From: an uncultured Gammaproteobacteria bacterium
GTDB taxonomy: Bacteria > Patescibacteriota > Microgenomatia > Levybacterales > UBA12049
Direction: 5' to 3'
Assembly (NCBI GenBank): GCA_964490105.1
Contig: CAZAZU010000001.1
Coordinates: 646,245 to 710,244 of the forward strand
Length of the DNA: 64,000 nucleotides
The notes beneath the pieces were generated by a model. The model saw only the letters and a program-made list of their open reading frames with translations, was not told the origin of the DNA and did no database searches. Of the stretch, positions 6,631 through 21,318 are shown piece by piece. Both the position numbers and the translations under genes were made by a program. Each line of letters opens with the position of its first letter. Position 1 is the first letter of the stretch.

Positions 6631-6732
6631 AGCGGGAAATTATATACTAGAGGTCTATATAAATCAAGCTTATATTGACTTGGTTTTGGCACAAACATTT
6701 ATGAGATTACACACGAGGAGTATAATTAGTGT

Positions 6733-7370
6733 GTGGATATTTCCCTTATCGCCAAAACTTTTATAACATTTTTTACAGTAATTGATCCCTTAGGCTTAGT
6801 TCCTGTAGTTCTAGTAATTTTAGCTAATAATAATCCCGAGGAAAGGAAAAAATAATTACCAGAGCGGTAATAATTGGTGCATTAGTAATTTTTACATTCG
6901 CTCTTTTAGGAAAAATACTTATAGAAAGTCTTGGGATCGGACTTTATGCATTTAACATCGCAGGAGGTGTTCTACTTTTTCTCATAGCTCTAGACATGCT
7001 TTTTGGAAGAACTCCTGGAACTCGCGAGACCCCAGTAGAAGAAAAAGAGGCAATAACTAGTAGTGATGTAAGCGTTTTTCCTTTAGCTATACCTATGATT
7101 GCAGGTCCTGGAACTATAGCCACCACTATTCTTTTTACAGACAACGCATCCGGAAGTAACTTGAGCATCCTTATACTTGCTGTAGTCCTAATTTTAATTC
7201 TATTTATTTCCTGGGTAGTTATGATAAAAAGTTCTTTAATTATGAAGCTTATTGGAAGAACTGGAATACTGGTTTTTTCTAGAATTCTGGGAATAATTCT
7301 AGCCGCATTAGCAGTCCAATATATTCTTAACGGTATTCAGACATTCCTGAAATTAAATGGATTTATTTAG
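6733..7370 (+). pseudogene. marC: MarC-family (UPF0056) integral membrane protein gene interrupted by a -1 frameshift in an A6 homopolymer (6847..6852); possible GTG start
   Basis: Frame 1 from GTG 6733 gives VDISLIAKTFITFFTVIDPLGLVPVVLVILANNNPEERKK then stop. The next frame continues IITRAVIIGALVIFTFALLGKILIESLGIGLYAFNIAGGVLLFLIALDMLFGRTPG..., the conserved MarC core, running into ORF 6996..7370. Restoring one A makes a single ~212-aa MarC protein. Confidence 0.55.
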
Positions 7371-7788: not shown

Positions 7789-7826
7789 GACTGAGGATTA
7801 TACTTCCGAGGCCAAATTAAATCAAT

Positions 7827-8474
7827 CTAAAAAGGAATATCGTTAGAAGCTTGTTGATCATCAATTCCTTCAAAAATCATTCTTTTATATACTTGTCGTG
7901 TTAACTCCACATCTTTCATGCAATACTTATTAATCTCCTCTATTCTTCCCTGCTGATAATAATCCCAGACCATAGATCCATCCATTTCATCTTTTGAAGT
8001 TGGTAATCCTAAAACCTTAGCAAGAGTATCTAACTTTTGAACTTTGTCAAAGTTCCATAAAGACCATTGAAGCATAGTGTCATAAATAGGTATATCTCTA
8101 TACCTAGCAAAACTTATATCAGTTCTTGGCTTAACTTTATTTATTATGGAGCGCTGATAGATGAATGGGAGATCAAATGACCAGATATTATGTCCCACAA
8201 ATCTCATAACATCCTGGGACGCTTTCCAGAAATTAATTAAGATTTCTTTTTCGTCTCCTGAAAAAGTCTCCCTAAAAATTTCCTTACCGTTCATTTCTTT
8301 TATAACGGCAATTGAACAAATTCTCCCAAAAGTCCCGTCAAAAGAAGTATTTGCGTGAATTTCTGTTTCAGCCTTATTACTATTCCCGTTTTTCTTTTTA
8401 AGAATCTCGAGATATGTATTTTTATATTCTTCAGCGCAGGGAATTGTCTCTATATCAAAAAATAATGTAATCAT
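7827..8474 (-). CDS. DnaQ-like 3'-5' exonuclease (PolB-exonuclease-related, RNase H-like fold)
   Basis: 215 aa. Exo I FFDIET, Exo II GHNIWSFDLPF, Exo III YCMKDVELT (YxxxD). Confidence 0.7.
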   Translation of the reverse strand: MITLFFDIETIPCAEEYKNTYLEILKKKNGNSNKAETEIHANTSFDGTFGRICSIAVIKEMNGKEIFRETFSGDEKEILINFWKASQDVMRFVGHNIWSFDLPFIYQRSIINKVKPRTDISFARYRDIPIYDTMLQWSLWNFDKVQKLDTLAKVLGLPTSKDEMDGSMVWDYYQQGRIEEINKYCMKDVELTRQVYKRMIFEGIDDQQASNDIPF

Positions 8475-8514
8475 AGCCGTGAATTATACTCTTGAAATAA
8501 TTATATAGCAATTC

Positions 8515-9054
8515 TTATTTCTTAAATTTCAAAACTAGCTCTATGTAAGTTTCTCTGGGAATTAAGATTCTAAATTTATTTAATTCTTCGCTACGTCTCA
8601 CATAAAAATCTTTAAATTTATCTCGTAAAGCATCTTCCATTATCTGGTAAGAAGTCTCGAGATCTATTTTTTTACCATTAAAATAACCGCTGAATTCATA
8701 CATTTCAGCGGAGACCCAGTCCCCATCTGTAATATTTATTGAATAACCGGATTTTTTTACTATTTTTTCAATTTCTTCTATGAATCTTTTTAAGCCTCTG
8801 TTTGAATAGTGAACAAGCGTATTTTTATAAAATAATGAGAATGGAAAATATCTAGTTAAATAAGAAACTATAACGAAATATAAATGATGAAAATTATAAT
8901 AGGAAAGACCCGTGTAAAATTTTAATAGCCATAAATAAGTTTCTATAGAATTTTCATTCAGATTCTTTGGAGGTTTCGAATTAAAAAGTTTATAGAAAAA
9001 GTAACTAATCCTGAATTCTTTTACAAAATCTTTTTCCGTATATCTCTTTTTCAC
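8515..9054 (-). CDS. Hypothetical protein (AT-rich island)
   Basis: 179 aa ORF, Tyr/Phe/Lys-rich. No motif recognised. Confidence 0.4.
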   Translation of the reverse strand: MKKRYTEKDFVKEFRISYFFYKLFNSKPPKNLNENSIETYLWLLKFYTGLSYYNFHHLYFVIVSYLTRYFPFSLFYKNTLVHYSNRGLKRFIEEIEKIVKKSGYSINITDGDWVSAEMYEFSGYFNGKKIDLETSYQIMEDALRDKFKDFYVRRSEELNKFRILIPRETYIELVLKFKK

Positions 9055-9117
9055 TATTTCCCAAAATTATATTCCCGCTCCCCAAATAAAGCAATTTAAT
9101 AGATGTATAATTAAGTT

Positions 9118-9510
9118 ATGAACCAAACAAAAGAATTGGAGGAATTAAAGTCCATTAAAAGAAAAGCAAGATTTCATTATAATTTTATCCGCTCTGTCTA
9201 TGTAGATAATTATAAAAATGAAACCTTCCCGCTACGAAAAATATATTACGAGGCAATAAATTCACTGGATTCCATGGAAAACCTCTATCAATCCCTAAAA
9301 ACAGGAATGAGAAAAAGGTCTTTATCTGAACAAATCCAATTTGTAGAAAAGTGGGAGGAATTTATTTTCTGCATAGAATCGATTACAGCTCAAAAAACAA
9401 ATGATAAATATTTAACAAGATATATTAATATGGACATGGAACTTGCAAACAAAGAAGCTATTTCACTCTGGATGGACTATAAAAAACAATTTCACCAAAA
9501 ACCTTACTAA
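9118..9510 (+). CDS. Hypothetical protein (AT-rich island)
   Basis: 130 aa ORF. No motif recognised. Confidence 0.35.
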   Translation: MNQTKELEELKSIKRKARFHYNFIRSVYVDNYKNETFPLRKIYYEAINSLDSMENLYQSLKTGMRKRSLSEQIQFVEKWEEFIFCIESITAQKTNDKYLTRYINMDMELANKEAISLWMDYKKQFHQKPY

Positions 9511-9543
9511 ATTATTTGAATACTATCTGCCCAAATAAAACAA

Positions 9544-9984
9544 TTATTTATTGAATAATACAAAGTGTGGTAGTTGATCAAGCCCAATATAATTAAACAT
9601 CCACAAATCTTTTCTTCCACTTTTAAAAGTAGCAAGGTATTTCTTGAGATTTAACTTAGGAATAAAGGGATAAAATCTAATCTCTTGCTTCATTTCGTTC
9701 TTCTCAATCCACTTAAAATTAGCAATTAGCGGAGGTGCAAAATAACCAGACTTGGTAACTTTATCCATTACCTCCCATGTAGCACCAAAAATCTCCTTTT
9801 TTGGTTTAGTAGAATTTGTTTTAACTTGTGCACGAAAATTACACCCCACACACTGAACATCACAAAGAGGAAAACTTGGAGGAAGAAGCATTAATTTCTT
9901 TTTGCAATTAGGACAACTAATCAAATCCACGATTTCCTGTTCACCAAAATCCCCTGCTTCCTTATTTGATATTTTTAAATCCAT
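9544..9984 (-). CDS. Zinc-ribbon protein (CPNC ... CDVQCVGC), island accessory gene
   Basis: 146 aa. Two Cys clusters near the N-terminus. Immediately downstream of the methyltransferase-like accessory gene. Confidence 0.45.
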   Translation of the reverse strand: MDLKISNKEAGDFGEQEIVDLISCPNCKKKLMLLPPSFPLCDVQCVGCNFRAQVKTNSTKPKKEIFGATWEVMDKVTKSGYFAPPLIANFKWIEKNEMKQEIRFYPFIPKLNLKKYLATFKSGRKDLWMFNYIGLDQLPHFVLFNK

Positions 9985-10032
9985 GATCGTGAATTATACA
10001 CTTGAAGAATTAATAAAACAATCTAGTTCAAT

Positions 10033-10938
10033 TTAACTTATTAGGTCGACAAATTTTACTGATTTATTTTCAACCCAGTCCATGATCTTGACATACTTAC
10101 CATTATGCTTAGTAGGAAGATTATACTTACACCCTTCACATTTGAATTTCCCTTCTGCGTCTTTAAGCGCTAACTGACCGGTCTTGGCATTGGCTTCGTG
10201 AAGACAGCTCATGGGCGTTACATACTTTAAACCGTCCATTTGAAAAACATTCCAGCTAATAATTTCTGCAAATTCTTTCTGTATAGATAGATCTGGACTA
10301 TTATCATATTTTTCCTTGTAATAATCAATTAATGTGTAAAGTAAATTTTCGCGGGCTATAAGAATATTATCCCCTTGCCACTCAAATCCATAAGAGCTTT
10401 GGAATGCAATTCGCGCCCACTTTAACCATTCTTTTTTATTAGAACCGTATTTGGATACAATCTGTAGCTTATGATCTAAAAACCCTACTCGATCCTTAGT
10501 TTTAATGATTTCACCACGCACTACTGGGTCATACCGACTAACGATAAATGGCGCTTCACCACAAGTAATTTCTAATTTTAATTCAGCAACATAAGTCTTC
10601 CAATTCGATCTGTTTATTCGAGACCTATTGGTAATTTTGTTCATTTCACTCACTATGTTAAGAGGGGTAAATACTTCGCCTTTATTTCTAGCTCGATTAC
10701 GTTGCTCTTGTAGGCTTCTTATTATACGGGGTTGAATTAGCTCGCCATGCTTTCCTGTAATAAGCTGGGGTTTAATTTGTTTTTCAGAAGCAAATTCTAC
10801 GCCGTATTGCTCAAAATAAGAATCAGTTGCCCATATAATGTATTTGCTAGTCGTATGATCTCTTAGAAGAATATCAAGTAAATCATTATCAAGTAGAAGA
10901 GTGTTCTCTAGAATATCAGCTTTATCTAAATAAGCCAT
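10033..10938 (-). CDS. Methyltransferase-like accessory protein: motif X (GEVFTP) and motif-I-like (LEITCGEAPF) present, no NPPY/DPPY; C-terminal CEGC cluster
   Basis: The ORF track gives 10033..10998. Start is more likely Met21 (ATG 10938..10936), 1 nt after the stop of the giant upstream gene, with a weak GGA upstream. The layout parallels the methyltransferase segment of the 1343-aa protein but lacks motif IV. Confidence 0.5.
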   Translation of the reverse strand: MAYLDKADILENTLLLDNDLLDILLRDHTTSKYIIWATDSYFEQYGVEFASEKQIKPQLITGKHGELIQPRIIRSLQEQRNRARNKGEVFTPLNIVSEMNKITNRSRINRSNWKTYVAELKLEITCGEAPFIVSRYDPVVRGEIIKTKDRVGFLDHKLQIVSKYGSNKKEWLKWARIAFQSSYGFEWQGDNILIARENLLYTLIDYYKEKYDNSPDLSIQKEFAEIISWNVFQMDGLKYVTPMSCLHEANAKTGQLALKDAEGKFKCEGCKYNLPTKHNGKYVKIMDWVENKSVKFVDLIS

Positions 10939-10939
10939 A

Positions 10940-13900
10940 TTATTCCATGGCTTTGACATGTGTTTCGATAAAATTTTTTTCTTTGTCATCAAGTCCATAT
11001 TTTTTATAAAGCTGCTTATCTATTTCAGAAACAGATTTTGTCCATTGTATATCTGATTTATCAGTAAAATCTTGAAGGGGGATGAATTTATACGTCTTTG
11101 AAGTAGCGTCTTGACTTGCTTTATTAAGGCTATGCAGAAATCTAGCAAATTTGGACTGTAAATATCTAGAAAGGTTATATGAAGAAAGTTTGTCTAATTT
11201 CAATTTTGCACCAATTACAACATAAGATTCCGTACAAATGGTATTTGGGTAACCAATAAATGTGTTTAAATTATCGTCATTTAACTCAGTCCCGATATTG
11301 TTTGCTCTTGGGGTGAATACTTTGTAATTATTAATCCAGTCTGTATTCCTTGTGATTTCACTCCTTTCTAAATAACCTATTTTTTTACCTTTTCCGTAGC
11401 AAGTAACAGGATGCCTCAAATTCTCTTTAGAAGACCTAAAAATCTTTGAATTCTTAATTATGTCACCATCTAAATTGAAAGGCCGTCGTGATGAAACATG
11501 AACTTCAAGAGATTTAAACTCGGAATAAGATTTAATTTTTTTAAGTATAGTTATCGCCTGAAAGTGTCGGATAAAAATATCAAAGCCTTCTGTGCTCAAG
11601 CTACGTGTACTAATTTTTGGCGATAAGTTATTCTCATATGTAAATATTTTGGTTAGATTCTTTGTATTATTGTAATTCCTATCCCATAATAGGTAACAAA
11701 TTCCTCCTCTTAAATTTATTTGTGGAAAAATTAATTCCGGATTAAGAAAATCATGTAGTTCAGTTATATGAATATCATTTAACATTCGAGCCCTAAAATC
11801 ATCCAAACCTTTACCACCCGCATACCAACGCGTTGGCATAATCATAGATATGTAGTGAGGTTTAAGGTTTTTAGCCATTTCAAAGAAAAGATTATAGACA
11901 GGCTTAGCGCTAGCCTGAGCTCCTCCATCCTTTTGCTGATAAGGGGGGTTTCCTACAATTGCTGTAAATTTCATATTATTCTTTTCTGACATAGTACCAT
12001 AAGTCTTCAAATCATCTATTGATATCTCACAGAACTTTTTATCTTGGAACAATAAATACTCAATTTCTTCATCTTTCAACTTGATAAGATCAAATGAATA
12101 GAAAAGCCTGGCAATATTATCTACATTTAAACCCAACGCTTCATACATTTTTCGAGTAAATTCATATGCAACTGGTGAGGTAGGAATTGAATAAAAATTA
12201 TTTCGTACTTCTTCTAAATTTATGCCAATATTAGTGACCTTTTCCACAAAACCCTTCGCAAAACTTCCTGATTTACTAGCTAAATCCAAAATTTTTGTAT
12301 GCTTAATATTGTCCCAAAACTTTTCATCAAAAGCGCGGTACATTTCGTTAACGATATGTGAGGGAGTAAAAACTTCTGCTTCAGACAGTCGTCCAAATTT
12401 ATTTATGGCAATTTCGATATGCTCAACCGGTGAAATACTCCCATCGTATGAACGAAAATCCGAATTTTGAATTTTATAATCAAGAGCACTCAGTACAAAT
12501 GGATTGATATTTTTGCGAATGAGCATTAGATCCTCTTTATTAATGCCAAGATTTTGGGCAATGCGACGATTATCATCATTTACATCAATATTAGATATAA
12601 CATCGGTTAAGGATTTTTCTTCAGTAGAAGATAGAAATGCAAATAGAAGAATCATCACATAATATGTGCGGAAACGCTTTTCAAATGATGAGATTTCTTC
12701 ACTATCTCCTTCTTTCTCTATAGATGATGTTGCCTTACTGCCTGCTCCTTCAATTCCATTTTCCACACCTTCTCCTTCTAAATCTATTCCGTCTTCTTCA
12801 TTTGGCTTAATATTAATCCCATTCTTCCCACCAAGCTCTGGCAATTCACTAATAACCTCATAAATCGCTTGGTTGTCTTTTAACGAAGCATCAATACCAA
12901 TTTCTTTTACATCTTCAATTATCGTTCTGTCGTTTACATATTTACGGACTTCATCGATAATTCTTGTAGCTGTTACTTCAACAAGTTTATTTCTCTCGGC
13001 ATTAAGCGTTATGATAGGCGAAATTTTAAGTTCTCGTTGAATGAACTCTTCGATATTTTCATTTCCTATTTTCTGTGTATTTGCGCCATAAGTAAATGCT
13101 TTCATTTCTTGAAGGTAAAAAAGCCTTGTTGGATCGAGGTCTACCAAAAGTGTTTGTGGTTTCATGTCATATTTAATAAAATCGCCATTTTTATCTTGAT
13201 ATTTCTCAACCCAAGGTGACTGTAAACGAAATATCGCCTGATCATATTCTTGTGGACTTGTCGTAGATTTAAGATAGATCATAGTATCCCATTGTGGTAC
13301 GGTAGAGCCAGTAAGCATTTTATTAACTGTTAAGGTAATTGTCTTTTTACCTTTTGATTCAGCGTATGATATCGCTGACTTAATTTCCTCTGGTGTTATG
13401 AGTTTTTTATTATATCCACTAATATTAAAGATTTCATATTCAGAAATATTCTTAAATAATGATAAATTAGTTAAAATAAGTTTTTCGAAAGCATCACATG
13501 ATGCGCAGTACGGCAACACAACAACTATGTGTTGCGCGAGCTTGCCTGCTTTAATAGTCTCGTTGTCGAGCAAACCAAGCATGTTGGCATCTTTTTTAGA
13601 ACCATCAAGTACTTGAAGCAATTCAATAATTTCTTGTTCATAAACAAAAGATTCATAGTCGCCATTCCTACTGATACTTACAGGGGTGAATAATTCGGCT
13701 GGTTTGCTACCCGGAATATTAGCAAGCTTTTTGCGTGAACTTTCATTGGGATTAAACGCAAAACGAATCATCTGCGGAAATCCATAATATGGATTGTCCC
13801 ATTCGTTTTCATCCAAATGATCCTCGTTCCAGTTTAATTTTGCTTCGTAAATATCGCCAAATTGTACAAAAGCAATAATATCCTCTTTATTAAACTCACT

Positions 13901-14971
13901 TCCCATCAAGATGCGATATGGAGTCCCGGAAAGGTGAAGTTTAATTTTAGCCTTTATTGATACGAGCTTAGTAAGAGAACCAAAATCAACCGGGTCTTCT
14001 TTGTCATTCTTTAGTAATTCTTTATCTTCATCATCAATTTCCAGTCCTGCAAGAATCTTACCCAGTACTTTTGCTCGAGCTCCAAAGTGTGTCTCATCGA
14101 TAATCAACAGATCTACACTAACTGTTTTTAAAATTTCATGGTGTTTTTTTATATTTTCTGAAGAACCTGCAAGGTCTTGTAATGTGAGAAATAAAACAAC
14201 ATTTGTACAATTCTCCTCTCCAATACCCGTCTTAAATTTTTGGTCATAAAAATCTGACAATCTCAATCCTCTTTTGAGATCGTCTTTATCAATAAAACGG
14301 TAACCTGCAAAATCCTTGTGACTTTCTACAGTTTGCTTCCATTCCGACCGCACATCTGCTTTTGCAGAGACTATAACCGTAAACTTAGAGTCAATACTTT
14401 TAGCGCTCCACATCGAAGTAATTGACTTTCCAAAACGCATAACAGCATACATGAGAAGATTAGTACGACCATTTTTTACAGCTGAATTGAATGCATTTAT
14501 GACATTTTGTTGGTTTTCGCGTGGGAGATAATCCTGTGTTCGACTGTAATGATATTCTATAATCTCCCTTGAGTTATTGTAATATTCATATTTATCTGTC
14601 TTTTGATAATTATTTACAATATCATTCACGGCATTAGTTATCTCAATCTCGCCAATTCCTTCAAAAAACTCCGTAGAATAAATATTTTTCAAAATATTCA
14701 AAGGGATTTGAGTAAAACCATTTTGCTGCAGATATTTATGTACAGAATAATCACGGAAAAATACTTTGCCATCAATTGATGCTTTATGACGAGAGATCTC
14801 TTTTAAGTCTTTATAGTATCGCCTCCATTCATTCAGTCGCTCCTCAACTGGGCGATAGGTATCTCCCACTTTCAGATAGTTCGGGAGGGTATTTGTTGCA
14901 AAAGAATAGATATAGGGAGACACCCGACCGATAATTATTTTTTGTAATTCTGAAGTATTTATCCTAGACAT
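10940..14971 (-). CDS. Single-chain T5orf172(GIY-YIG-like)-SF2 helicase-N6-adenine methyltransferase-TRD protein (Type ISP-like restriction-modification/defence enzyme)
   Basis: 1343 aa. N-terminus YIYSFATNTLPNYLKVGDTYRPVEERLNEW (T5orf172/GIY-YIG-like). Helicase Walker A MRFGKSITS and DEAH-like LIIDETHF. Helicase C motifs MLTGSTVP and QAIFRLQSP. Methyltransferase motif X EVFTPSHIV, motif I ILDLASKSGSFAKGF, motif IV IVGNPPYQQ. About 300 aa C-terminal putative target-recognition region. Confidence 0.75.
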   Translation of the reverse strand: MSRINTSELQKIIIGRVSPYIYSFATNTLPNYLKVGDTYRPVEERLNEWRRYYKDLKEISRHKASIDGKVFFRDYSVHKYLQQNGFTQIPLNILKNIYSTEFFEGIGEIEITNAVNDIVNNYQKTDKYEYYNNSREIIEYHYSRTQDYLPRENQQNVINAFNSAVKNGRTNLLMYAVMRFGKSITSMWSAKSIDSKFTVIVSAKADVRSEWKQTVESHKDFAGYRFIDKDDLKRGLRLSDFYDQKFKTGIGEENCTNVVLFLTLQDLAGSSENIKKHHEILKTVSVDLLIIDETHFGARAKVLGKILAGLEIDDEDKELLKNDKEDPVDFGSLTKLVSIKAKIKLHLSGTPYRILMGSEFNKEDIIAFVQFGDIYEAKLNWNEDHLDENEWDNPYYGFPQMIRFAFNPNESSRKKLANIPGSKPAELFTPVSISRNGDYESFVYEQEIIELLQVLDGSKKDANMLGLLDNETIKAGKLAQHIVVVLPYCASCDAFEKLILTNLSLFKNISEYEIFNISGYNKKLITPEEIKSAISYAESKGKKTITLTVNKMLTGSTVPQWDTMIYLKSTTSPQEYDQAIFRLQSPWVEKYQDKNGDFIKYDMKPQTLLVDLDPTRLFYLQEMKAFTYGANTQKIGNENIEEFIQRELKISPIITLNAERNKLVEVTATRIIDEVRKYVNDRTIIEDVKEIGIDASLKDNQAIYEVISELPELGGKNGINIKPNEEDGIDLEGEGVENGIEGAGSKATSSIEKEGDSEEISSFEKRFRTYYVMILLFAFLSSTEEKSLTDVISNIDVNDDNRRIAQNLGINKEDLMLIRKNINPFVLSALDYKIQNSDFRSYDGSISPVEHIEIAINKFGRLSEAEVFTPSHIVNEMYRAFDEKFWDNIKHTKILDLASKSGSFAKGFVEKVTNIGINLEEVRNNFYSIPTSPVAYEFTRKMYEALGLNVDNIARLFYSFDLIKLKDEEIEYLLFQDKKFCEISIDDLKTYGTMSEKNNMKFTAIVGNPPYQQKDGGAQASAKPVYNLFFEMAKNLKPHYISMIMPTRWYAGGKGLDDFRARMLNDIHITELHDFLNPELIFPQINLRGGICYLLWDRNYNNTKNLTKIFTYENNLSPKISTRSLSTEGFDIFIRHFQAITILKKIKSYSEFKSLEVHVSSRRPFNLDGDIIKNSKIFRSSKENLRHPVTCYGKGKKIGYLERSEITRNTDWINNYKVFTPRANNIGTELNDDNLNTFIGYPNTICTESYVVIGAKLKLDKLSSYNLSRYLQSKFARFLHSLNKASQDATSKTYKFIPLQDFTDKSDIQWTKSVSEIDKQLYKKYGLDDKEKNFIETHVKAME

Positions 14972-15053
14972 TGTTTTTTAGTATTTTCCTTTGGATTCAT
15001 TTATATATAATGAACACAGAAGAATTATACTGCTTTTGAGGCTGGATTAAAAG

Positions 15054-15503
15054 CTAATTACTTTCCTCTATTAATAATCCTGCGTTTTTACGCTGCTCCA
15101 TAATCCGCCCCTGCTGAATTAAAATTCTATCTTTATATTCTTTAGCGCTGGTAAATGCGTTTGCGACCTCAGCGGGATTTGTTTCGTAAAGATTCATATC
15201 AGTAATTTTAGAAAAATTTGATCCTTGAACATAATAAAGTCTTGATAATTCTTCATAACCTGAAATGAGATTCAGATATTTTTCGTTTTTATCTTCCAGA
15301 TCTCCATAAGGAACTTTTTGAATATTTCCCTCAATAATTAATGTAAATAAAATTCCCAGAACAAAAAAACCAAGAGCAGAAGACGCTCCTAATATAAGTT
15401 TTGGGATTTTTTTATAAAACCGCGGAAGTATCTCAAAAGCCAGTTTTTTATATGTTTTTATTAAAAATTTAAAAGGAGATAATAATTTAGATAGGCCTGC
15501 CAT
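15054..15503 (-). CDS. Membrane-anchored hypothetical protein
   Basis: 149 aa. Internal TM ILGASSALGFFVLGILFTLII. No motif recognised. Confidence 0.45.
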   Translation of the reverse strand: MAGLSKLLSPFKFLIKTYKKLAFEILPRFYKKIPKLILGASSALGFFVLGILFTLIIEGNIQKVPYGDLEDKNEKYLNLISGYEELSRLYYVQGSNFSKITDMNLYETNPAEVANAFTSAKEYKDRILIQQGRIMEQRKNAGLLIEESN

Positions 15504-15584
15504 TTCAGGCGATTATAGTACTTAAGAAATAAAAAAGATACACTTTGACCTAATTGACTTTTTTATCCTCAAGTTTTAAAGTTT

Positions 15585-15887
15585 ATAAACTCCGAATAGA
15601 TAGGAGAAAGGCTCAGTTGACGACCTGTTCGCAGGTCGGATGCTGAAACGATTGACCATCTTAAGCGCATTCAATAAATTTTCATTTGGAGAAACCCTAT
15701 GGCAGGACAAATGAAAGATGGCACCGCTAAGGAGTCCCTCTTCTGGGGGCAAGTGCCGTCTGCTATGACAAAAGAATGAGATGATTCTTCAAAATTCCGA
15801 AGAATTCTAGGGATTTTGATGGTGGCAGGAATGCAATCAGGGAAAGAGAGTGAATGGGCATCTACCCAGGATCTCTCTTTTTTTATT
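15585..15887 (+). ncRNA. Candidate unclassified structured RNA (~300 nt) with putative promoter (TTGACT 15554..15559, N17, TAAAGT) and 3' intrinsic terminator
   Basis: About 45% GC versus ~30% flanks. No convincing ORF. Ends in a hairpin plus T-run. I could not match it to the tmRNA, RNase P, SRP or 6S conserved motifs. Confidence 0.2.
15843..15887 (+). terminator. Rho-independent terminator-like hairpin (aaagagag ... ctctcttt) followed by a T-run, functional only in + orientation
   Basis: Stem 15843..15850 pairs with 15873..15880, with an internal GGG/CCC sub-stem, then ttttt. No + strand CDS precedes it, implying an unannotated + strand transcript. Confidence 0.35.
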
Positions 15888-16160
15888 CTCCAAAAGACAC
15901 TTCAGGCTGCATACCAGGCTTCGGAGTAAGTCTTCTTATATGAAAGTCTTGAAGCAATATAATTTGCCTAAAATTAATACATGGATGACAAGAAGTGGGA
16001 GGAAGGCTCTTGTAATGTGCATTTCTTACATGATCAGCAAATTGTCGCACGGTAGCACTTCGCTCCTCTCTTAAAACTTCCAGCTCAATGCCATTTGGAT
16101 TTACTCCGTTTTCCATCTGCGGATTTTACCATATTTTCTTACAAATGACTATAGGATATA

Positions 16161-16727
16161 TTAAGGAGCTGGAGTAGGACTTTCTGCAGGGCTAATAGTT
16201 GGATCCACTGAGACTTGGGGATTAGGACTTGGGGCTGCAGTTTGGGATTTAAAATCCAATAATTCTATTTCAAAAATTAGAGGGGTATTTGGCGGAATTG
16301 GCCCAGAGCCAGCTGCTCCATACGCTAAATCTGAAGGAATTCCTATTTGCCTCTTCCCTCCAATTTTCATACCTACCACTCCTAGCTCGACACCTTTTAT
16401 AACCTGCCCTGCACCTACCTGAAAGGTTAATGGAGAGTTTTTTTGATATGAATCATCAAATATCTTTCCATCCATAAACGCTCCCTTATAATGAATCGTA
16501 ACGATGTCACCAGCTACAACTGCAGCAGAAGAAGTTCCTACATTTAAATCTCTTCCAGTTAATTCAGTTAGGGGTACCGGAGTAGGCGTTACCCCTTTTG
16601 CACCTAAGTTTAGAACCGTAAGGTCTTCGCCCATTTTAGGTAATTTATTAGATTGAAAAACGAGAAGAACCATGAGAAGTATTAGAAGTCCAAATGCGCC
16701 AATTGCAATTAAGTGTTTGTTTTCCAC
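16161..16727 (-). CDS. FKBP-type peptidyl-prolyl cis-trans isomerase, membrane anchored, Pro/Ser-rich C-terminal tail
   Basis: 188 aa. GDIVTIHYKGAFMDGKIFDDSY...LIFEIELLDF FKBP core. N-terminal TM. Confidence 0.85.
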   Translation of the reverse strand: MENKHLIAIGAFGLLILLMVLLVFQSNKLPKMGEDLTVLNLGAKGVTPTPVPLTELTGRDLNVGTSSAAVVAGDIVTIHYKGAFMDGKIFDDSYQKNSPLTFQVGAGQVIKGVELGVVGMKIGGKRQIGIPSDLAYGAAGSGPIPPNTPLIFEIELLDFKSQTAAPSPNPQVSVDPTISPAESPTPAP

Positions 16728-17116: not shown

Positions 17117-19024
17117 ATGACAGCGAAGCAAATCATAGATATTTATATAAGTTTTTTTGAAAAACGCGGACATAAAAGAATCCCCAATTCTCCACTCGTT
17201 CCTGAAAATGACCCCACTACTCTTTTTACTTCTTCCGGAATGCAGCCTTTAGTTCCATATTTATTAGGACAAGAACATCCCCAAGGAAACAGATTAGTAG
17301 ATGTACAGAATTGTTTTAGAGCAGTAGATATCGATGAAGTTGGAGATAACAGGCACACCACTTTTTTCCGAATGCTCGGCAACTGGAGCCTAGGAGATTA
17401 TTTTAAAAAAGAGGAAATTCCATGGCTTTGGGAACTACTCACAAAAGAGCTAAGACTTCCAAAAGAAAAACTATATATAACAATCTTTGGAGGAGATGAA
17501 AATTTCAAAGTTTTAAAAAATGACAAATATCAACCGCTAACTCCGGACGCAGAATCATATTCCATATGGGCCAAAACATTAGATATTGAAAATGATGCAG
17601 ATGAAAAGAAGAAGAGAATCACCTATTGCGGTGCTGATAAAAATTGGTGGTCTAGGTCTGGAGTACCAGAAAAAATGCCAATCGGTGAACCGGGAGGACC
17701 TGACACGGAAGTTTATTATAAATTTGAAAATATTGAGCACGAAAAAAATTGCCTAGGTGACAGCCCAGCGTTATGTGAATGCGGAGTTTACTTAGAAATC
17801 GCGAATGCAGTCTTCATGCAATATAAAAAAATCGACGAAATAACTTTTGAAGAATTACCAAATAAAAATGTGGATTTTGGTGGCGGACTTGAGAGACTTA
17901 TCGCAGCTACAGAAAACAAGAGTGATATATTTCAGACTTCTCTTTTCGCACCTGTCATAAAATCTCTTGAAGACAATATATTAACAAAGTTTAAATATGA
18001 TAACGAAATAAGAGTTGATAAATCATTTAGGATAATCGCAAATCATCTTGTATCCGCTGTTTTTCTCATAAACTCAGGCATCTTGCCTGGAAATAAAGAA
18101 AGAGAGTCCGTCACTAGAAGATTAATTCGCAAAGCTGTTGCCCAAAAGTTTCTATGGGGAGATCGAGAAAAAAGTTTTTCTCCAGTAATAGAGATAATTC
18201 TTGAAACCTATAGAGAGACTGATCCTGAATTAAAAGATTTAGTAAAGAAAGTTATTGAGGAAGAAGAAATAAAAGCGAATAGAGCAACTAATGAAGGATT
18301 TAAGGCATGGAGCAAGTGGGTTGAAGCAGAATATATTTCTAATCCACAAATACCTGGAGATTTTATGCCTGGAGAAGGAGGTAAACTTCCACCACTTTCT
18401 GCTGAGAAAATGTTCGATCTTTATCAGTCCTATGGCTTATCACTTGATGTTATGGAAGATGTAACCCAAGGAAATATAGACAAGGAAGGTTTTAATAAAC
18501 TACTTGAAAAACATCATGATATTTCTCGAGCTGGTGCTACTAAAAAATTCGCGGGAGGGCTTGCGGATCATTCTGAACAAACAGTGAGAGGACACACTGC
18601 GACCCACCTTATGCACCAAGCCATAAGAGATATGCTGGGAACATCAGTTCACCAGTCAGGGTCAAACATTACAGCTGAAAGAGTGAGGTTTGATTTTAAT
18701 TTTGATAGAAATTTAACAGATGAGGAAATAACCAAACTTGAACAGACTGTAAACGAAAAAATAAAAGAAAAAATGCCTGTTTATTTTGAATTTATGCCGC
18801 TCGTTAAAGCTAAGGAAATAGGTGCAATCGGACTTTTTGATGAAAAATATTCTGACAAAGTAAAAATATATTTAATTGGTGACAAAAATCCAGAAAAAGC
18901 GTACTCAAAAGAGTTCTGCGGGGGCCCCCATGTCAACTTTACTGATGAGGTAAAATCGTTTAAGATAATAAAGCAGGAGAATATCGGAAACGGCCTGCGT
19001 CGGCTTTATGCAAAAGTCGGTTGA
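17117..19024 (+). CDS. alaS: Alanine--tRNA ligase, short form lacking the C-terminal (C-Ala) domain
   Basis: 635 aa. FTSSGMQP, FFRMLGNWSLGDYFK catalytic core, editing-domain HTATHLMHQAIRDML (HxxxH). Confidence 0.9.
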   Translation: MTAKQIIDIYISFFEKRGHKRIPNSPLVPENDPTTLFTSSGMQPLVPYLLGQEHPQGNRLVDVQNCFRAVDIDEVGDNRHTTFFRMLGNWSLGDYFKKEEIPWLWELLTKELRLPKEKLYITIFGGDENFKVLKNDKYQPLTPDAESYSIWAKTLDIENDADEKKKRITYCGADKNWWSRSGVPEKMPIGEPGGPDTEVYYKFENIEHEKNCLGDSPALCECGVYLEIANAVFMQYKKIDEITFEELPNKNVDFGGGLERLIAATENKSDIFQTSLFAPVIKSLEDNILTKFKYDNEIRVDKSFRIIANHLVSAVFLINSGILPGNKERESVTRRLIRKAVAQKFLWGDREKSFSPVIEIILETYRETDPELKDLVKKVIEEEEIKANRATNEGFKAWSKWVEAEYISNPQIPGDFMPGEGGKLPPLSAEKMFDLYQSYGLSLDVMEDVTQGNIDKEGFNKLLEKHHDISRAGATKKFAGGLADHSEQTVRGHTATHLMHQAIRDMLGTSVHQSGSNITAERVRFDFNFDRNLTDEEITKLEQTVNEKIKEKMPVYFEFMPLVKAKEIGAIGLFDEKYSDKVKIYLIGDKNPEKAYSKEFCGGPHVNFTDEVKSFKIIKQENIGNGLRRLYAKVG

Positions 19025-21318
19025 TCTCTATGAACTTACCAAAACTGCCCTTTTTAGAGAAAAAGAATAAATCGGAGTTTTTCCTCTCTCTAGTTCTTCG
19101 TGATGAAAAAGCTAGTGCTGTAGTTTTTCAGGAAATTGACGGGAAAATAAATGTAGTCGGAGAACATGTAGTTAACTTTAAAACATCCGTTGAAGACGCC
19201 TCAGAAGAAGAATTACTTGACGCGATAGATAAAGCGGTTTCAACTGCAGAAAAAAATCTTCCCCCTGACATGGAAAGTCACAAAACTATTTTTGGAGTAA
19301 AACAGGACTGGATAATTGACGGAAAGATTAAACCTGCATATCTAACTAAATTAAAAAAAATAAGCGATGAACTGGAATTTAAGCCAATGGGTTTTCTTGT
19401 AATTCCTGAAGCCATCGCACATCTGCTTCAAAAAGAAGAAGGCGCACCAGTTACTGCGATTCTCGCTGAAATCGGACAAAAAAACGTAACTCTTTCTTTA
19501 ATTAGAGCAGGAAAAATTGTAGAAGCAAAAGGAGCCGCAATCGGCGACTCGCTGGTCGCGACAGTTGAAACAGTTCTTAAGCATTTTTCCGTGGAAAATC
19601 TCCCGCCAAGAATTATTCTGTTTGATAGCGGACGCGAAGATGTCCAGCAAAAATTTATAACTCATAAATGGAGTCAAAGTCTTCACTTTTTACACCTCCC
19701 TCAAGTAAGTGTACTTCCAGCAAATTTTGATGCAAGAGCCGTACTTTCTGGTGCAGCAACTCAGATGGGATTTGAAATATTTGAAGCTTCTCTTACTGAT
19801 GTAGAAAATTCAAACACCAAACATATAAGAGCTGCTGTTCCAATTGTCGAGGAAGAACCAGACAGAACGCTTGCTGAGGCAGCATCTGAATTTGGATTTG
19901 TTGGAGGGGACGTAAAAGATACTAAAGCAGAAGCCAAAACTGAAAAAGATTTACTTGAAACCACAGAAGAATTAGAAATAGAAGATACAGAACCAGTTAA
20001 AGATATTCCAAAAACTGCTGTAATGGATAACATATCTCCCGCAGATCAATTCAGAGAAATTCCAGAAGAAGTAAAAATAAATAGTGCGGAGAAAAAACCG
20101 CTTCCAATAAACGCAGCGCTAATGATGAGTGGCATTATGGGTTTTATTAAAAAAGTACATCCGGGGAAAATATTAAAAGGAGCAAATGGATCACGCAAAA
20201 AACTCATAATTGGAATTATTCCGCTCGCCATAATTCTTCTTTTCCTCTACATTTATCTTTTTGGCAGGAGTGCGACAGTTACTTTAGGAATTGATGCCAG
20301 AGAAGAGGATGAGGAAGTAAATGTAACATTCTCTGAATCTGAAGCGACAAGCGCTTCGGATAATGTTATAAATGCGGAGTTTATAACTGTTACAGCTGAT
20401 GGTAAAAAATCTATCGCTACCACAGGTAAAAAAGAAATCGGAGATAAAGCGAAAGGAACTGTAACATTATTTAACAGCAATACCTCAGGAGTTACGATTC
20501 CAACAGGCACCGTAATAACATCTCCAAATGATCTTAAATTCGTTACAGATAAGGCGGTCACAATTGCCTCCGCCTCAGGCGATATTTTCTCAGGAACTGA
20601 GCCCGGGAAAGCAGATGTAACTGTAACTGCTGAGAAATTTGGTACAAGTCAAAATCTCCCAAGCAATACTAAATTCACAGTCGAGGGAAGTAGCTCAGTT
20701 GCTGCAAAAAATGATAAAGCATTTTCAGGAGGAACTAAAAAAGAGGTAAAAGTTGTCGCGAAAAAAGATCAGGATAAATTACTCGCGGAACTTCAGAAAG
20801 ATTTAGAAACTGAAGCAAAAGAGCAAATTCAAAAAAAAGCAGAAAATGGATCTGTAGTATTACCAAACTTTATCTCAGTCGAATATGATAAAAAAACCTT
20901 CAGTAAAGACGTTGATGATGAAGCAACAGAAATCAGTCTAACCGGAACAATAAGCTATAAAGGGGTTTCGTACAAAGAAGAGGATATTCTAAAATTTGCT
21001 AAAGACAAACTTGAGACCAGCAGTGACTTAGAAGTAGATAAAGATAGCATAGAAGCAAGTGCAGCCAATCTAAAAGCAAAAGGAAATAATGCTACTGGAA
21101 AACTTACCATAAAAGCTAATCTGGTTCCAAAAATTGACTCAAAGGAAATTGCTAAGGAGATAAAAGGAAAATCTACGAAGGATGCTATTGAGAAACTAAA
21201 TGAAATAGATGAGGTAAATAAAGTAGATATAAAATTATTCCCGCCTATCCCCTTTCTCCCACAGCGTATTCCGTTCTCCTCGGGAAAGATAAAAATAATG
21301 ACAGAAAAAAATGGGTAA
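19021..21318 (+). CDS. Large bitopic membrane protein: N-terminal cytoplasmic domain with FtsA/PilM-like (actin-fold-like) features, central TM, C-terminal extracellular Thr/Ser/Lys-rich domain
   Basis: 765 aa. Start overlaps alaS stop (ATGA). TM LIIGIIPLAIILLFLYIYLFG near aa 395-415. Domain assignment is tentative. Confidence 0.55.
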   Translation: MISMNLPKLPFLEKKNKSEFFLSLVLRDEKASAVVFQEIDGKINVVGEHVVNFKTSVEDASEEELLDAIDKAVSTAEKNLPPDMESHKTIFGVKQDWIIDGKIKPAYLTKLKKISDELEFKPMGFLVIPEAIAHLLQKEEGAPVTAILAEIGQKNVTLSLIRAGKIVEAKGAAIGDSLVATVETVLKHFSVENLPPRIILFDSGREDVQQKFITHKWSQSLHFLHLPQVSVLPANFDARAVLSGAATQMGFEIFEASLTDVENSNTKHIRAAVPIVEEEPDRTLAEAASEFGFVGGDVKDTKAEAKTEKDLLETTEELEIEDTEPVKDIPKTAVMDNISPADQFREIPEEVKINSAEKKPLPINAALMMSGIMGFIKKVHPGKILKGANGSRKKLIIGIIPLAIILLFLYIYLFGRSATVTLGIDAREEDEEVNVTFSESEATSASDNVINAEFITVTADGKKSIATTGKKEIGDKAKGTVTLFNSNTSGVTIPTGTVITSPNDLKFVTDKAVTIASASGDIFSGTEPGKADVTVTAEKFGTSQNLPSNTKFTVEGSSSVAAKNDKAFSGGTKKEVKVVAKKDQDKLLAELQKDLETEAKEQIQKKAENGSVVLPNFISVEYDKKTFSKDVDDEATEISLTGTISYKGVSYKEEDILKFAKDKLETSSDLEVDKDSIEASAANLKAKGNNATGKLTIKANLVPKIDSKEIAKEIKGKSTKDAIEKLNEIDEVNKVDIKLFPPIPFLPQRIPFSSGKIKIMTEKNG

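Follow-up and report, generated by a model that had tools for sequence, protein, structure and literature searches.

Genes and features of the segment

We analysed a 64,000-nucleotide stretch of DNA (hereafter the window; contig CAZAZU010000001.1 of GenBank assembly GCA_964490105.1, positions 646,245 to 710,244 of the forward strand), which was deposited as an uncultured Gammaproteobacteria bacterium and is placed by GTDB in Patescibacteriota. Our subject is a segment of seven genes at 7827–15503 of the window, coding for an exonuclease (EXO), a DpnI-like protein (DpnI-like146), a large restriction-modification (RM) enzyme (IIG1343), its small partner MT321, and the proteins h179, h130 and h149 (Table 1). 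Comparison with related genomes indicated that the segment is probably a mosaic accessory interval of the chromosome of a Patescibacterium, whose core at ~9.5–15.0 kb is a slot for exchangeable RM cassettes. A first-pass annotation of the same DNA had listed these genes correctly and had proposed an accessory segment with defence genes. Its count of four uncharacterised proteins held for h179 and h130, which stay without assigned function, but one of the others is a DpnI-fold nuclease, one is an RM partner, and h149 is a gene of the flank.

Table 1 Positions of genes and other features in the window. L002 is the closest related locus.
Feature	Position	Strand	Description
EXO	7827..8474	-	215-aa stand-alone DEDDy 3'-5' exonuclease, PF10108 (PolB-exonuclease-like)
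h179	8515..9054	-	179 aa; lowest-GC gene (26.7%); small family with conserved YxPFS...H, E96 and R153
h130	9118..9510	+	130 aa; only plus-strand gene of the segment; very narrow family
DpnI-like146	9544..9984	-	146-aa stand-alone DpnI-type PD-(D/E)xK catalytic domain with Cys4 zinc site
MT321	10033..10998	-	321 aa (301 aa from the second ATG); small partner; PADLOC MTase_II, 306 bits
IIG1343	10940..14971	-	1343-aa single-chain RM enzyme, from PADLOC match, Pfam domains and motifs
h149	15054..15503	-	149-aa predicted membrane-anchored protein with N-terminal hydrophobic helix; flank gene
GC-rich patch	15554..15888	+	~300-nt structured-RNA candidate between h149 and FKBP; outside the island
Variable segment compared with L002	7844..15023	.	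7180 bp against 3842 bp of unrelated L002 DNA, from blastn breakpoints and junction alignments
Left flank			h141, frameshifted MarC gene, CsoR-DUF305-cupredoxin-CopA cluster
Right flank			650-bp non-coding stretch, FKBP, h79, AlaRS

One chromosomal position with alternative cassettes

Species-representative genomes were scanned with h141, which gave four related loci (L002–L005), and these were compared with the window by tblastn and blastn. Locus L098 was found separately, through h130. The L002–L005 contigs are titled 'uncultured Gammaproteobacteria bacterium', probably a labelling error of the deposited records, as their genes and closest named homologues are Patescibacterial. The AlaRS of the window falls in a cluster with the name 'Patescibacteria group bacterium', and the exact gene order recurs on a Logan contig from SRR8863434. 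L002 was the closest relative, its flank proteins being 84–94% identical in amino acid (aa) sequence to those of the window. Homology to L002 halted at 7843, within the last codons of the EXO gene (left breakpoint 7843/7844), and restarted at 15024. Since this right breakpoint lies at 15023/15024, h149 falls outside the island; compared with L004, the right breakpoint was at ~15553. The corresponding interval of L002 encodes a 229-aa Cas4-like nuclease, a C5 methyltransferase (MTase), a D12 N6-adenine MTase, and an HNH Type II restriction endonuclease (REase; PADLOC REase_II, 291 bits). L098 has in common with the window h130, the RNA element of the right flank, FKBP, h79, and AlaRS, and of h149 it retains 49 bp from the 3' end. 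The DNA between h130 and this h149 remnant encodes a C5 MTase, a 209-aa RE_BsaWI-like protein (a putative REase), Vsr, and a 247-aa protein. L004 (~70–78% identity) has the order FKBP, RNA element, h229-like gene and h141, with neither the island nor h149. Beside h141, L003 has a gene for a 502-aa Cas4-plus-DEDD fusion (DUF2779/UU173-like), and L005 has different genes, including Fic.

One chromosomal position was thus found in four states, three with different RM cassettes (the window, L002, and L098) and one empty (L004), which is a replacement and presence–absence polymorphism at a fixed locus among close relatives. The narrowest variable core extends from h130 to h149 and in the window holds DpnI-like146, MT321, and IIG1343 (9544–14971), while the widest variable interval extends from 7844 to ~15553. 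These edges are more precise than those of the first-pass annotation. Known defence genes are part of the cargo, with PADLOC matches for IIG1343 and MT321 and none for h179, h130, DpnI-like146, or h149. EXO, h179, and h130, which make up the left third of the interval, vary but are not recognisable as defence genes. The accessory segment with defence genes was borne out by the differing cargo of L002, L098, and L004, and the objection that the gene order might be conserved as core genome in the lineage does not hold, because the syntenic comparison showed that the order is not kept.

Among the known defences of bacteria of the candidate phyla radiation, RM systems are the main one, and variable RM loci are well known; the island is in this respect an ordinary one, an RM exchange slot of a known kind. 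The DpnI/DpnII locus of Streptococcus pneumoniae and the hsd region of Escherichia coli, the 'immigration control region', are RM loci in which conserved flanks enclose alternative cassettes. As in the window, unrelated RM sets occupy one position in related genomes, with no site-specific recombination genes. Compared to those loci, the slot described here lies in a Patescibacterium, is more mosaic (at least three independently varying modules), and is known from four metagenomic relatives rather than from a population survey.

The large RM enzyme and its small partner

The RM-like enzyme of the first-pass annotation was confirmed as IIG1343, which matched the PADLOC model REase_MTase_IIG (PDLC03626) over its full length (1186.6 bits, residues 9–1342 on profile positions 12–1359). 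Its N-terminus contains a T5orf172 domain of the GIY-YIG superfamily (residues 20–114, 26.5 bits with a cut-off of 20), its middle a superfamily 2 (SF2) ATPase (ResIII/Helicase_C) with GKS and DETH motifs, and residues 925–1082 a Pfam Eco57I methylase domain (80.2 bits). The methylase belongs to the gamma class of N6-adenine MTases, with NPPY at 1008 and motif X (EVFTP) at 866–870, and the C-terminal region is taken to be the target-recognition domain. No island protein had a match in NCBIfam.

The REBASE-derived models class IIG1343 as a Type IIG enzyme. Consistent with this class, the REase and MTase are on one polypeptide, the methylase has the (D/N)PP(Y/F) motif of the gamma class, and the family model was matched over its full length. 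With the Eco57I family of Type IIG enzymes, IIG1343 shares a nuclease, a gamma-class N6-adenine methylase, and a C-terminal recognition region on one chain. The gene for M.Eco57I adjoins that for Eco57I, and the small methylase-like gene stands beside the large enzyme in the same way. However, the nuclease of IIG1343 is of the T5orf172/GIY-YIG type, whereas those of Eco57I and MmeI are of the PD-(D/E)xK type; it contains an inserted SF2 ATPase module that is absent in classical Type IIG enzymes, and MT321 has no NPPY. Type IIG enzymes cut independently of ATP and at a fixed distance from an asymmetric site; for IIG1343, independence of ATP is doubtful, because the GKS and DETH motifs of the SF2 ATPase are intact.

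The order of nuclease, SF2 ATPase, N6-adenine methylase, and target recognition on one chain is also that of the Type ISP enzymes LlaGI and LlaBIII. The Type ISP nuclease is an Mrr-family PD-(D/E)xK domain, whereas the N-terminus of IIG1343 is T5orf172 and not Mrr, and a phmmer search of IIG1343 against all PDB chains gave no match at E <= 0.001, including to LlaBIII. Type ISP enzymes act alone, unlike IIG1343 with its partner gene MT321. In the scheme that we propose, the C-terminal region of IIG1343 would read a specific site and the methylase would mark host DNA with N6-methyladenine (m6A). On unmodified incoming DNA, the ATPase would drive translocation or remodelling and the GIY-YIG domain would cut. 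By analogy, the principle would be that of Type ISP and Type I enzymes, carried out with different parts.

MT321 contains a methylase-like motif X (EVFTP..IV.EM), a motif I that appears degenerate by eye, and a C-terminal Cys cluster. A motif scan found no (D/N/S)PP(Y/F/W) catalytic motif, and the protein had no Pfam match and no PDB sequence match. A duplication of the IIG1343 methylase domain was considered as its source and rejected, as only the 15 residues of motif X align. Its role could be second-strand methylation, regulation, or assembly. The pair of a large and a small gene recurs on Bacillota plasmids at 25–48% identity. Plasmids of Enterococcus faecium encode a 282-aa protein with 40% identity to MT321, and its gene lies directly upstream of that for an Eco57I-domain protein of 1412 aa. 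A Paenisporosarcina plasmid has a gene for a 253-aa 'N-6 DNA methylase' ahead of one for a large enzyme, which shows 48% identity to IIG1343 over its C-terminal 489 aa. A Limosilactobacillus plasmid encodes, in this order, the large enzyme, a 'restriction endonuclease', and an 'N-6 DNA methylase'. Such similarity across phyla fits a horizontal spread of the two-gene module.

A DpnI-like protein at the end of RM operons

The AlphaFold model of DpnI-like146 (pLDDT 89.9) had DpnI (4kyw_A) as its top Foldseek match in PDB (E 7e-6, TM 0.79), in an alignment that covers the whole query and about half of the target (TMt 0.48). The Pfam DpnI model (PF06044) gave 21.4 bits at profile positions 25–97 of 183, which is below the gathering cut-off of 26.7, and many homologues have a precomputed match to this model. 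The number of homologues was 1136; those listed were 60–85% identical, and the named ones belong to Paceibacterota, Moranbacteria, and the 'Patescibacteria group'. Residues E15, C24, C27, D42, C48, and Q53-x-K55 are invariant in the family, and C45 is present in more than 90% of sequences. The protein thus combines the DpnI catalytic fold with the Cys4 zinc site and PD-(D/E)xK residues. R.DpnI, a Type IIM enzyme that depends on Gm6ATC (PDB 4kyw/4esj), is the best structural match and has the same layout of Cys4 zinc and D...(E/Q)xK. Compared to R.DpnI, the identity is ~19%, Q replaces E in the catalytic triad, and only the catalytic domain is present: the protein ends after it (146 aa versus 254 in DpnI) and does not have the m6A-sensing winged helix.

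Six distinct contexts of the DpnI-like gene were read, counting the window. The gene directly upstream was co-oriented in all six, with gaps of 7–116 nt, and recognisable RM genes were directly upstream in five. The DpnI-like gene comes last after Type I M-DUF4145-S in L093 (gene at 10001), after Type III Mod-Res in L094 (10001, gap of 7 nt), after an HsdR-like gene and an M-S fusion in L095 (6001), and after a Type I-like methylase in L102 (7001, gap of 7 nt). In these four loci and in L100, the proteins are 143–146 aa long, and the gap to the preceding gene is often 7–8 nt. In L093 and L095, the DpnI-like gene is followed by a Cas4-like nuclease gene. The DpnI-like family was essentially absent among the plasmids and viral contigs searched.

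We consider DpnI-like146 most likely to be an independent nuclease that accompanies RM systems and is possibly methyl-directed, because it is kept while the RM type changes and has its own leaderless-type promoter-like site in the window. An alternative is a true cognate endonuclease of the adjacent methylases, that is, a trans-acting restriction subunit common to many RM types. The gene is always at the 3' end of an RM set, often 7–8 nt past the preceding stop, and beside the Type I-like methylase of L093 and L102 no further gene can be recognised as a dedicated restriction subunit. However, the protein stays 65–85% identical while its partner systems change type and presumably specificity, which makes a cognate subunit unlikely. 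In addition, IIG1343, the Type III Res of L094, and the HsdR-like protein of L095 already carry nuclease domains, and the separate promoter-like site speaks against a subunit as well.

The exonuclease as a probable resident gene

EXO matched Pfam PF10108 at 75.9 bits (cut-off 24) and has the acidic residues and the Tyr of a DEDDy exonuclease. The motifs FDIET, GHNIWxFDLPF, and YCMKDVELT, of which the first-pass annotation had reported the essentials, are present and invariant in the family, with D7, E9, D101, Y184, and D188 identical in 28 sequences. With these motifs intact, EXO is a clear member of PF10108/COG3298 ('predicted 3'-5' exonuclease related to the PolB exonuclease domain'), a family listed only as predicted and with no experimentally defined role (PMC3985635). 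There were 521 homologues, of which the best 120, at 60–85% identity, are from Patescibacteria; a look-up of the exact EXO sequence gave nothing, although the homology database contains that protein. Homologues of PF10108 in phages are annotated as polymerase-associated, while the Patescibacterial clade is stand-alone and chromosomal, with no adjacent polymerase. Many of its members have a tail of the type [DE][DE][IL][PN]F, like the C-terminus of SSB (the protein that binds single-stranded DNA), unlike PF10108 at large.

A metagenome scan for EXO gave 80 loci, and 76 EXO-bearing loci other than the window were searched by tblastn with every island protein. None of h179, h130, DpnI-like146, MT321, and IIG1343 was found within 10 kb of EXO in these 76 loci. 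FKBP adjoins EXO in L007 and L008 and is also near it in L009, L022, and L029; a CsoR-cupredoxin-CopA cluster adjoins it in L034 and L035, and MarC in L012. With FKBP, MarC, and CsoR-CopA as neighbours elsewhere in the absence of the RM genes, EXO appears to have long belonged to this part of the chromosome, though it is included in the stretch in which the window and L002 differ. At 25 loci, 114 genes lay within three positions of EXO, and these were heterogeneous, including FKBP (3), Dus (3), OLD/AAA (3), C5 MTase (2), ResIII (2), and RecA. Because none of the 76 loci carries these RM genes, we read EXO as a predicted DNA-metabolism gene found across the Patescibacterial lineage and not as an RM subunit.

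The first-pass annotation had suggested that the exonuclease might belong to an RM-linked system of the island, and the extended form of this idea is one integrated defence system in which the exonuclease, h179, h130, DpnI-like146, and the RM enzyme act together, with the exonuclease for example degrading DNA after RM cleavage. In its favour, the genes adjoin one another and are for the most part on the same strand, a Cas-associated DEDDh model of PADLOC matched EXO weakly (27.9 bits), the EXO homologue of L009 has genes for a C5 MTase and R.HinP1I directly upstream, and OLD/AAA genes are neighbours at three loci. Against these stand the 76 loci with none of the other genes, the occurrence of the RM pair on plasmids with no other island gene, the separate promoter-like sites of EXO and DpnI-like146, and the heterogeneous, mostly housekeeping neighbourhoods of EXO. 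The phyletic spreads are also unlike, with more than 500 relatives of EXO, 72 of h179, five of h130, and more than 1100 of DpnI-like146. We therefore regard an integrated system as very unlikely; the 521 homologues and the backbone neighbours tell the same way. This removes a tempting but wrong link between the exonuclease and RM.

SSB-like tails on two unrelated nucleases

The C-terminus of EXO reads ...SNDIPF; in the best 120 homologues, the ending was [ILVM][PNS]F in 47 and F in 67. The C-terminus of bacterial SSB is DDDIPF (PMC5872125, PMC3159472). The Cas4-like nuclease that replaces EXO in L002, a PD-(D/E)xK protein with four Cys, has the tail ...TDDIPF (L002 9945–9962). Cas4-like nucleases of the same kind were found in L005 (4564–5253), L093 (10931–11599), and L095 (6481–7170), with the tails EDLPF, EDIPF, and EELPF, and the copies of L093 and L095 lie close to the DpnI-like gene. 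Among 3923 open reading frames (ORFs) of at least 60 aa in all the sequences compared, endings of the type [DE][DE]?[ILVM][PNS]F occurred only in the EXO family, the Cas4-like family, and one phage SSB, that of L051. The fusion protein of Cas4-like and DEDD parts in L003 (502 aa) ends in ...DDSSF. A phage-like module of L051 (637–2388) encodes in a row a 191-aa recombinase-like protein that ends in EDIPQ, a 248-aa EXO homologue (37% identity), and, directly after it, an SSB that ends in ...DSDIPF, which connects this family of exonucleases with recombination modules centred on SSB.

EXO and the Cas4-like nuclease are unrelated, occupy the same position beside h141 in different genomes, and are fused in L003. 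From their tails, the two may bind to the same partner, one that recognises tails of the SSB type. Together, the shared tails, the same position, and the L003 fusion suggest interchangeable end-processing nucleases on one SSB-interaction hub. As a tentative proposal, to which we give a rather low probability, EXO and the Cas4-like nuclease would be such interchangeable nucleases, and DpnI-like146 would serve RM operons with adenine methylases (Types I, III, and IIG) as a general accessory nuclease.

Mode of exchange

No tRNA gene was found in the 64 kb, so that there is no tRNA-linked integration, and domain scans gave no integrase or transposase in or beside the segment. Direct repeats or att sites were also not found at its edges. 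The segment therefore does not have the mobility genes, tRNA target, or flanking repeats of a typical genomic island. A 35-nt repeat (8478–8512 and 9988–10022) was considered as a recombination site and rejected, as its copies are two similar leaderless-type promoters upstream of EXO and DpnI-like146. On the minus strand, TTGnnn-17-TATAAT followed after 5–8 nt by ATG is present at 8478–8512, 9988–10022, and 7789–7826, directly upstream of the starts of EXO, DpnI-like146, and h141, which suggests leaderless transcripts.

Given the sharp breakpoints and the lack of an integrase, transposase, tRNA, or flanking repeat, the cassettes would be exchanged by homologous recombination in the conserved flanks. 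Saccharibacteria have been reported to be naturally competent (PMC10633639). In the right flank, AlaRS (17117–19024) was only 60% identical to its counterpart in L002 (2499–4289), with 84–94% for its neighbours, and its first 128 residues were 92% identical to L098; the AlaRS gene itself may have been exchanged.

The segment could instead be what remains of a prophage or integrative element that delivered the exonuclease along with the RM genes. EXO was the only island protein with a match in PHROGs, to PHROG 403 ('DNA polymerase exonuclease subunit'), is 32–39% identical to the 'PolB-associated exonuclease' of Brucella, Vibrio, and other phages, and has a counterpart in the row of recombinase-like, EXO-like, and SSB genes of L051. 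However, capsid and terminase genes are missing in and beside the segment, as are an integrase, a transposase, a tRNA, and boundary repeats; the Patescibacterial EXO clade is chromosomal, with FKBP, MarC, and CsoR/CopA as backbone neighbours; and viral contigs and plasmids have next to no members of the DpnI-like family. We consider this origin highly improbable and favour recombination in the flanks.

Base composition and weight of the evidence

The GC content of 7827–15503 was 32.7%, compared with 36.2% in the remainder of the window and 35.8% in the whole window, and only 1.2% of equal-length windows had a GC content as low. All seven genes were below the mean gene GC (35.5%, standard deviation 4.0), with only h179 (26.7%) more than two standard deviations off. 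The immediate flanks have ~38–40% GC, and inside the segment only 8.0–9.5 kb drops to 28–30%. The tetranucleotide distance rose modestly over 8–14 kb, reaching roughly the values seen elsewhere in the window, and further, shorter GC dips were found at 29.5–31 kb and 45–48.5 kb. The AT-rich dip of the first-pass annotation is real, but the quoted contrast of 27–33% with 38–45% was overstated. GC at third codon positions (GC3) was 0.21–0.30 in the segment genes, not under the window mean of 0.255; because GC3 is unchanged, the AT excess lies in codon positions 1 and 2 and is a matter of amino acid content, not a foreign codon signature. As a sign of an island, the composition amounts to a GC content 3.5 points lower with unchanged GC3 and other regions equally low. 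The sliding-window and tetranucleotide checks that the first-pass annotation had proposed did give lower GC and a modest rise, but the dip is not unique and is weak as sole evidence.

An ordinary core region with no island, its low GC due to proteins rich in Lys, Asn, and Ile, would fit the GC3 at the window mean, the single gene beyond two standard deviations, and the equally AT-rich parts elsewhere, but it is refuted by synteny, with unrelated sequence in L002 and L098, absence in L004, and sharp breakpoints, and we give it almost no probability.

We thus return to the mosaic interval with an RM exchange slot. Several points weigh against it. The four related genomes that cover the locus are all fragments of metagenome assemblies. 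The lowest-GC part of the window is 56–64 kb (32.5%), as low as the segment itself, and with GC3 the same as in the host the composition gives little independent support to a foreign origin. The RM activity of IIG1343 and MT321 and its mechanism are predictions from the sequence, and the role of MT321 is ambiguous, as PADLOC (REBASE-derived) calls it a methylase and NCBI homologues are called 'restriction endonuclease' or 'N-6 DNA methylase'. Q-x-K instead of E-x-K leaves the catalytic competence of DpnI-like146 unproven. In L100, one of the six contexts, the DpnI-like gene (7001) follows two unannotatable proteins with no recognisable RM gene upstream, and it could be a mere backbone gene beside an insertion hot spot, with no tie to RM. 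With these points taken into account, we put the probability of a mosaic accessory interval with a core slot for exchangeable RM cassettes at about 80%.

Other genes and the conserved RNA candidate

The h179 family comprises 72 representative clusters. Its predicted model (pLDDT 93.8) consists of an N-terminal helical part and a C-terminal alpha/beta domain and had no significant PDB match; neither Pfam, PADLOC, NCBIfam, nor PHROG gave a match for h179, h130, or h149. One h179 homologue adjoins an HEPN_AbiV gene. For h130, four homologues were found in 5.8 billion clusters. In L098 it is the left flank of the different RM cassette, with 82.8% nucleotide identity over 9080–9484. The flank protein h149 is 84% identical in L002, the only relative to share it.

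In the left flank, the MarC gene (6732–7370, plus strand) is disrupted, with its first ~35 codons out of frame and several stops, and is either a pseudogene or an assembly error; the orthologues in L002 and L003 are intact (212 aa). Directly after AlaRS, 19021–21318 (plus strand) encodes a 765-aa protein with a Baseplate_J-like domain, which is conserved in L002 (84%) and L093 (41%).

The first-pass annotation had taken the GC-rich patch as the edge of the island, which was not borne out, as the conserved element is also present in L002, L004, and L098. Its nucleotide identity to these loci was 88–90%, above that of the neighbouring coding DNA. The patch has a promoter-like TTGACT-17-TAAAGT and a terminator-like 3' hairpin followed by a T-run, folds better than 200 of 200 shuffled sequences (minimum free energy z = -3.28), and has four compensatory pairs among four sequences. 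Rfam gave no match for it, either with the whole window at the gathering threshold, at which no Rfam family was found in the 64 kb, or with 15400–16250 at E<=1. An nhmmer search with the four-sequence alignment found the patch only in close relatives. The only small ORF in the patch (26 aa) was rejected as non-coding, being broken by a 1-nt indel in L004 and L098. The patch is thus a candidate RNA gene and not a boundary scar. Between it and the FKBP stop codon, a 276-bp segment (15885–16160) is absent from L002, L004, and L098 and unique in the window; it carries a 77-aa ORF (15883–16116, minus strand) with no family match.

Implications

Exact breakpoints can now be given for a locus of RM exchange in a lineage regarded as naturally competent. 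In low-GC streamlined genomes such as this one, accessory DNA is shown by synteny where composition fails. The SSB-like tails, the DpnI-domain protein that trails RM operons, and the unclassified conserved RNA provide testable handles on the DNA metabolism of uncultured organisms.

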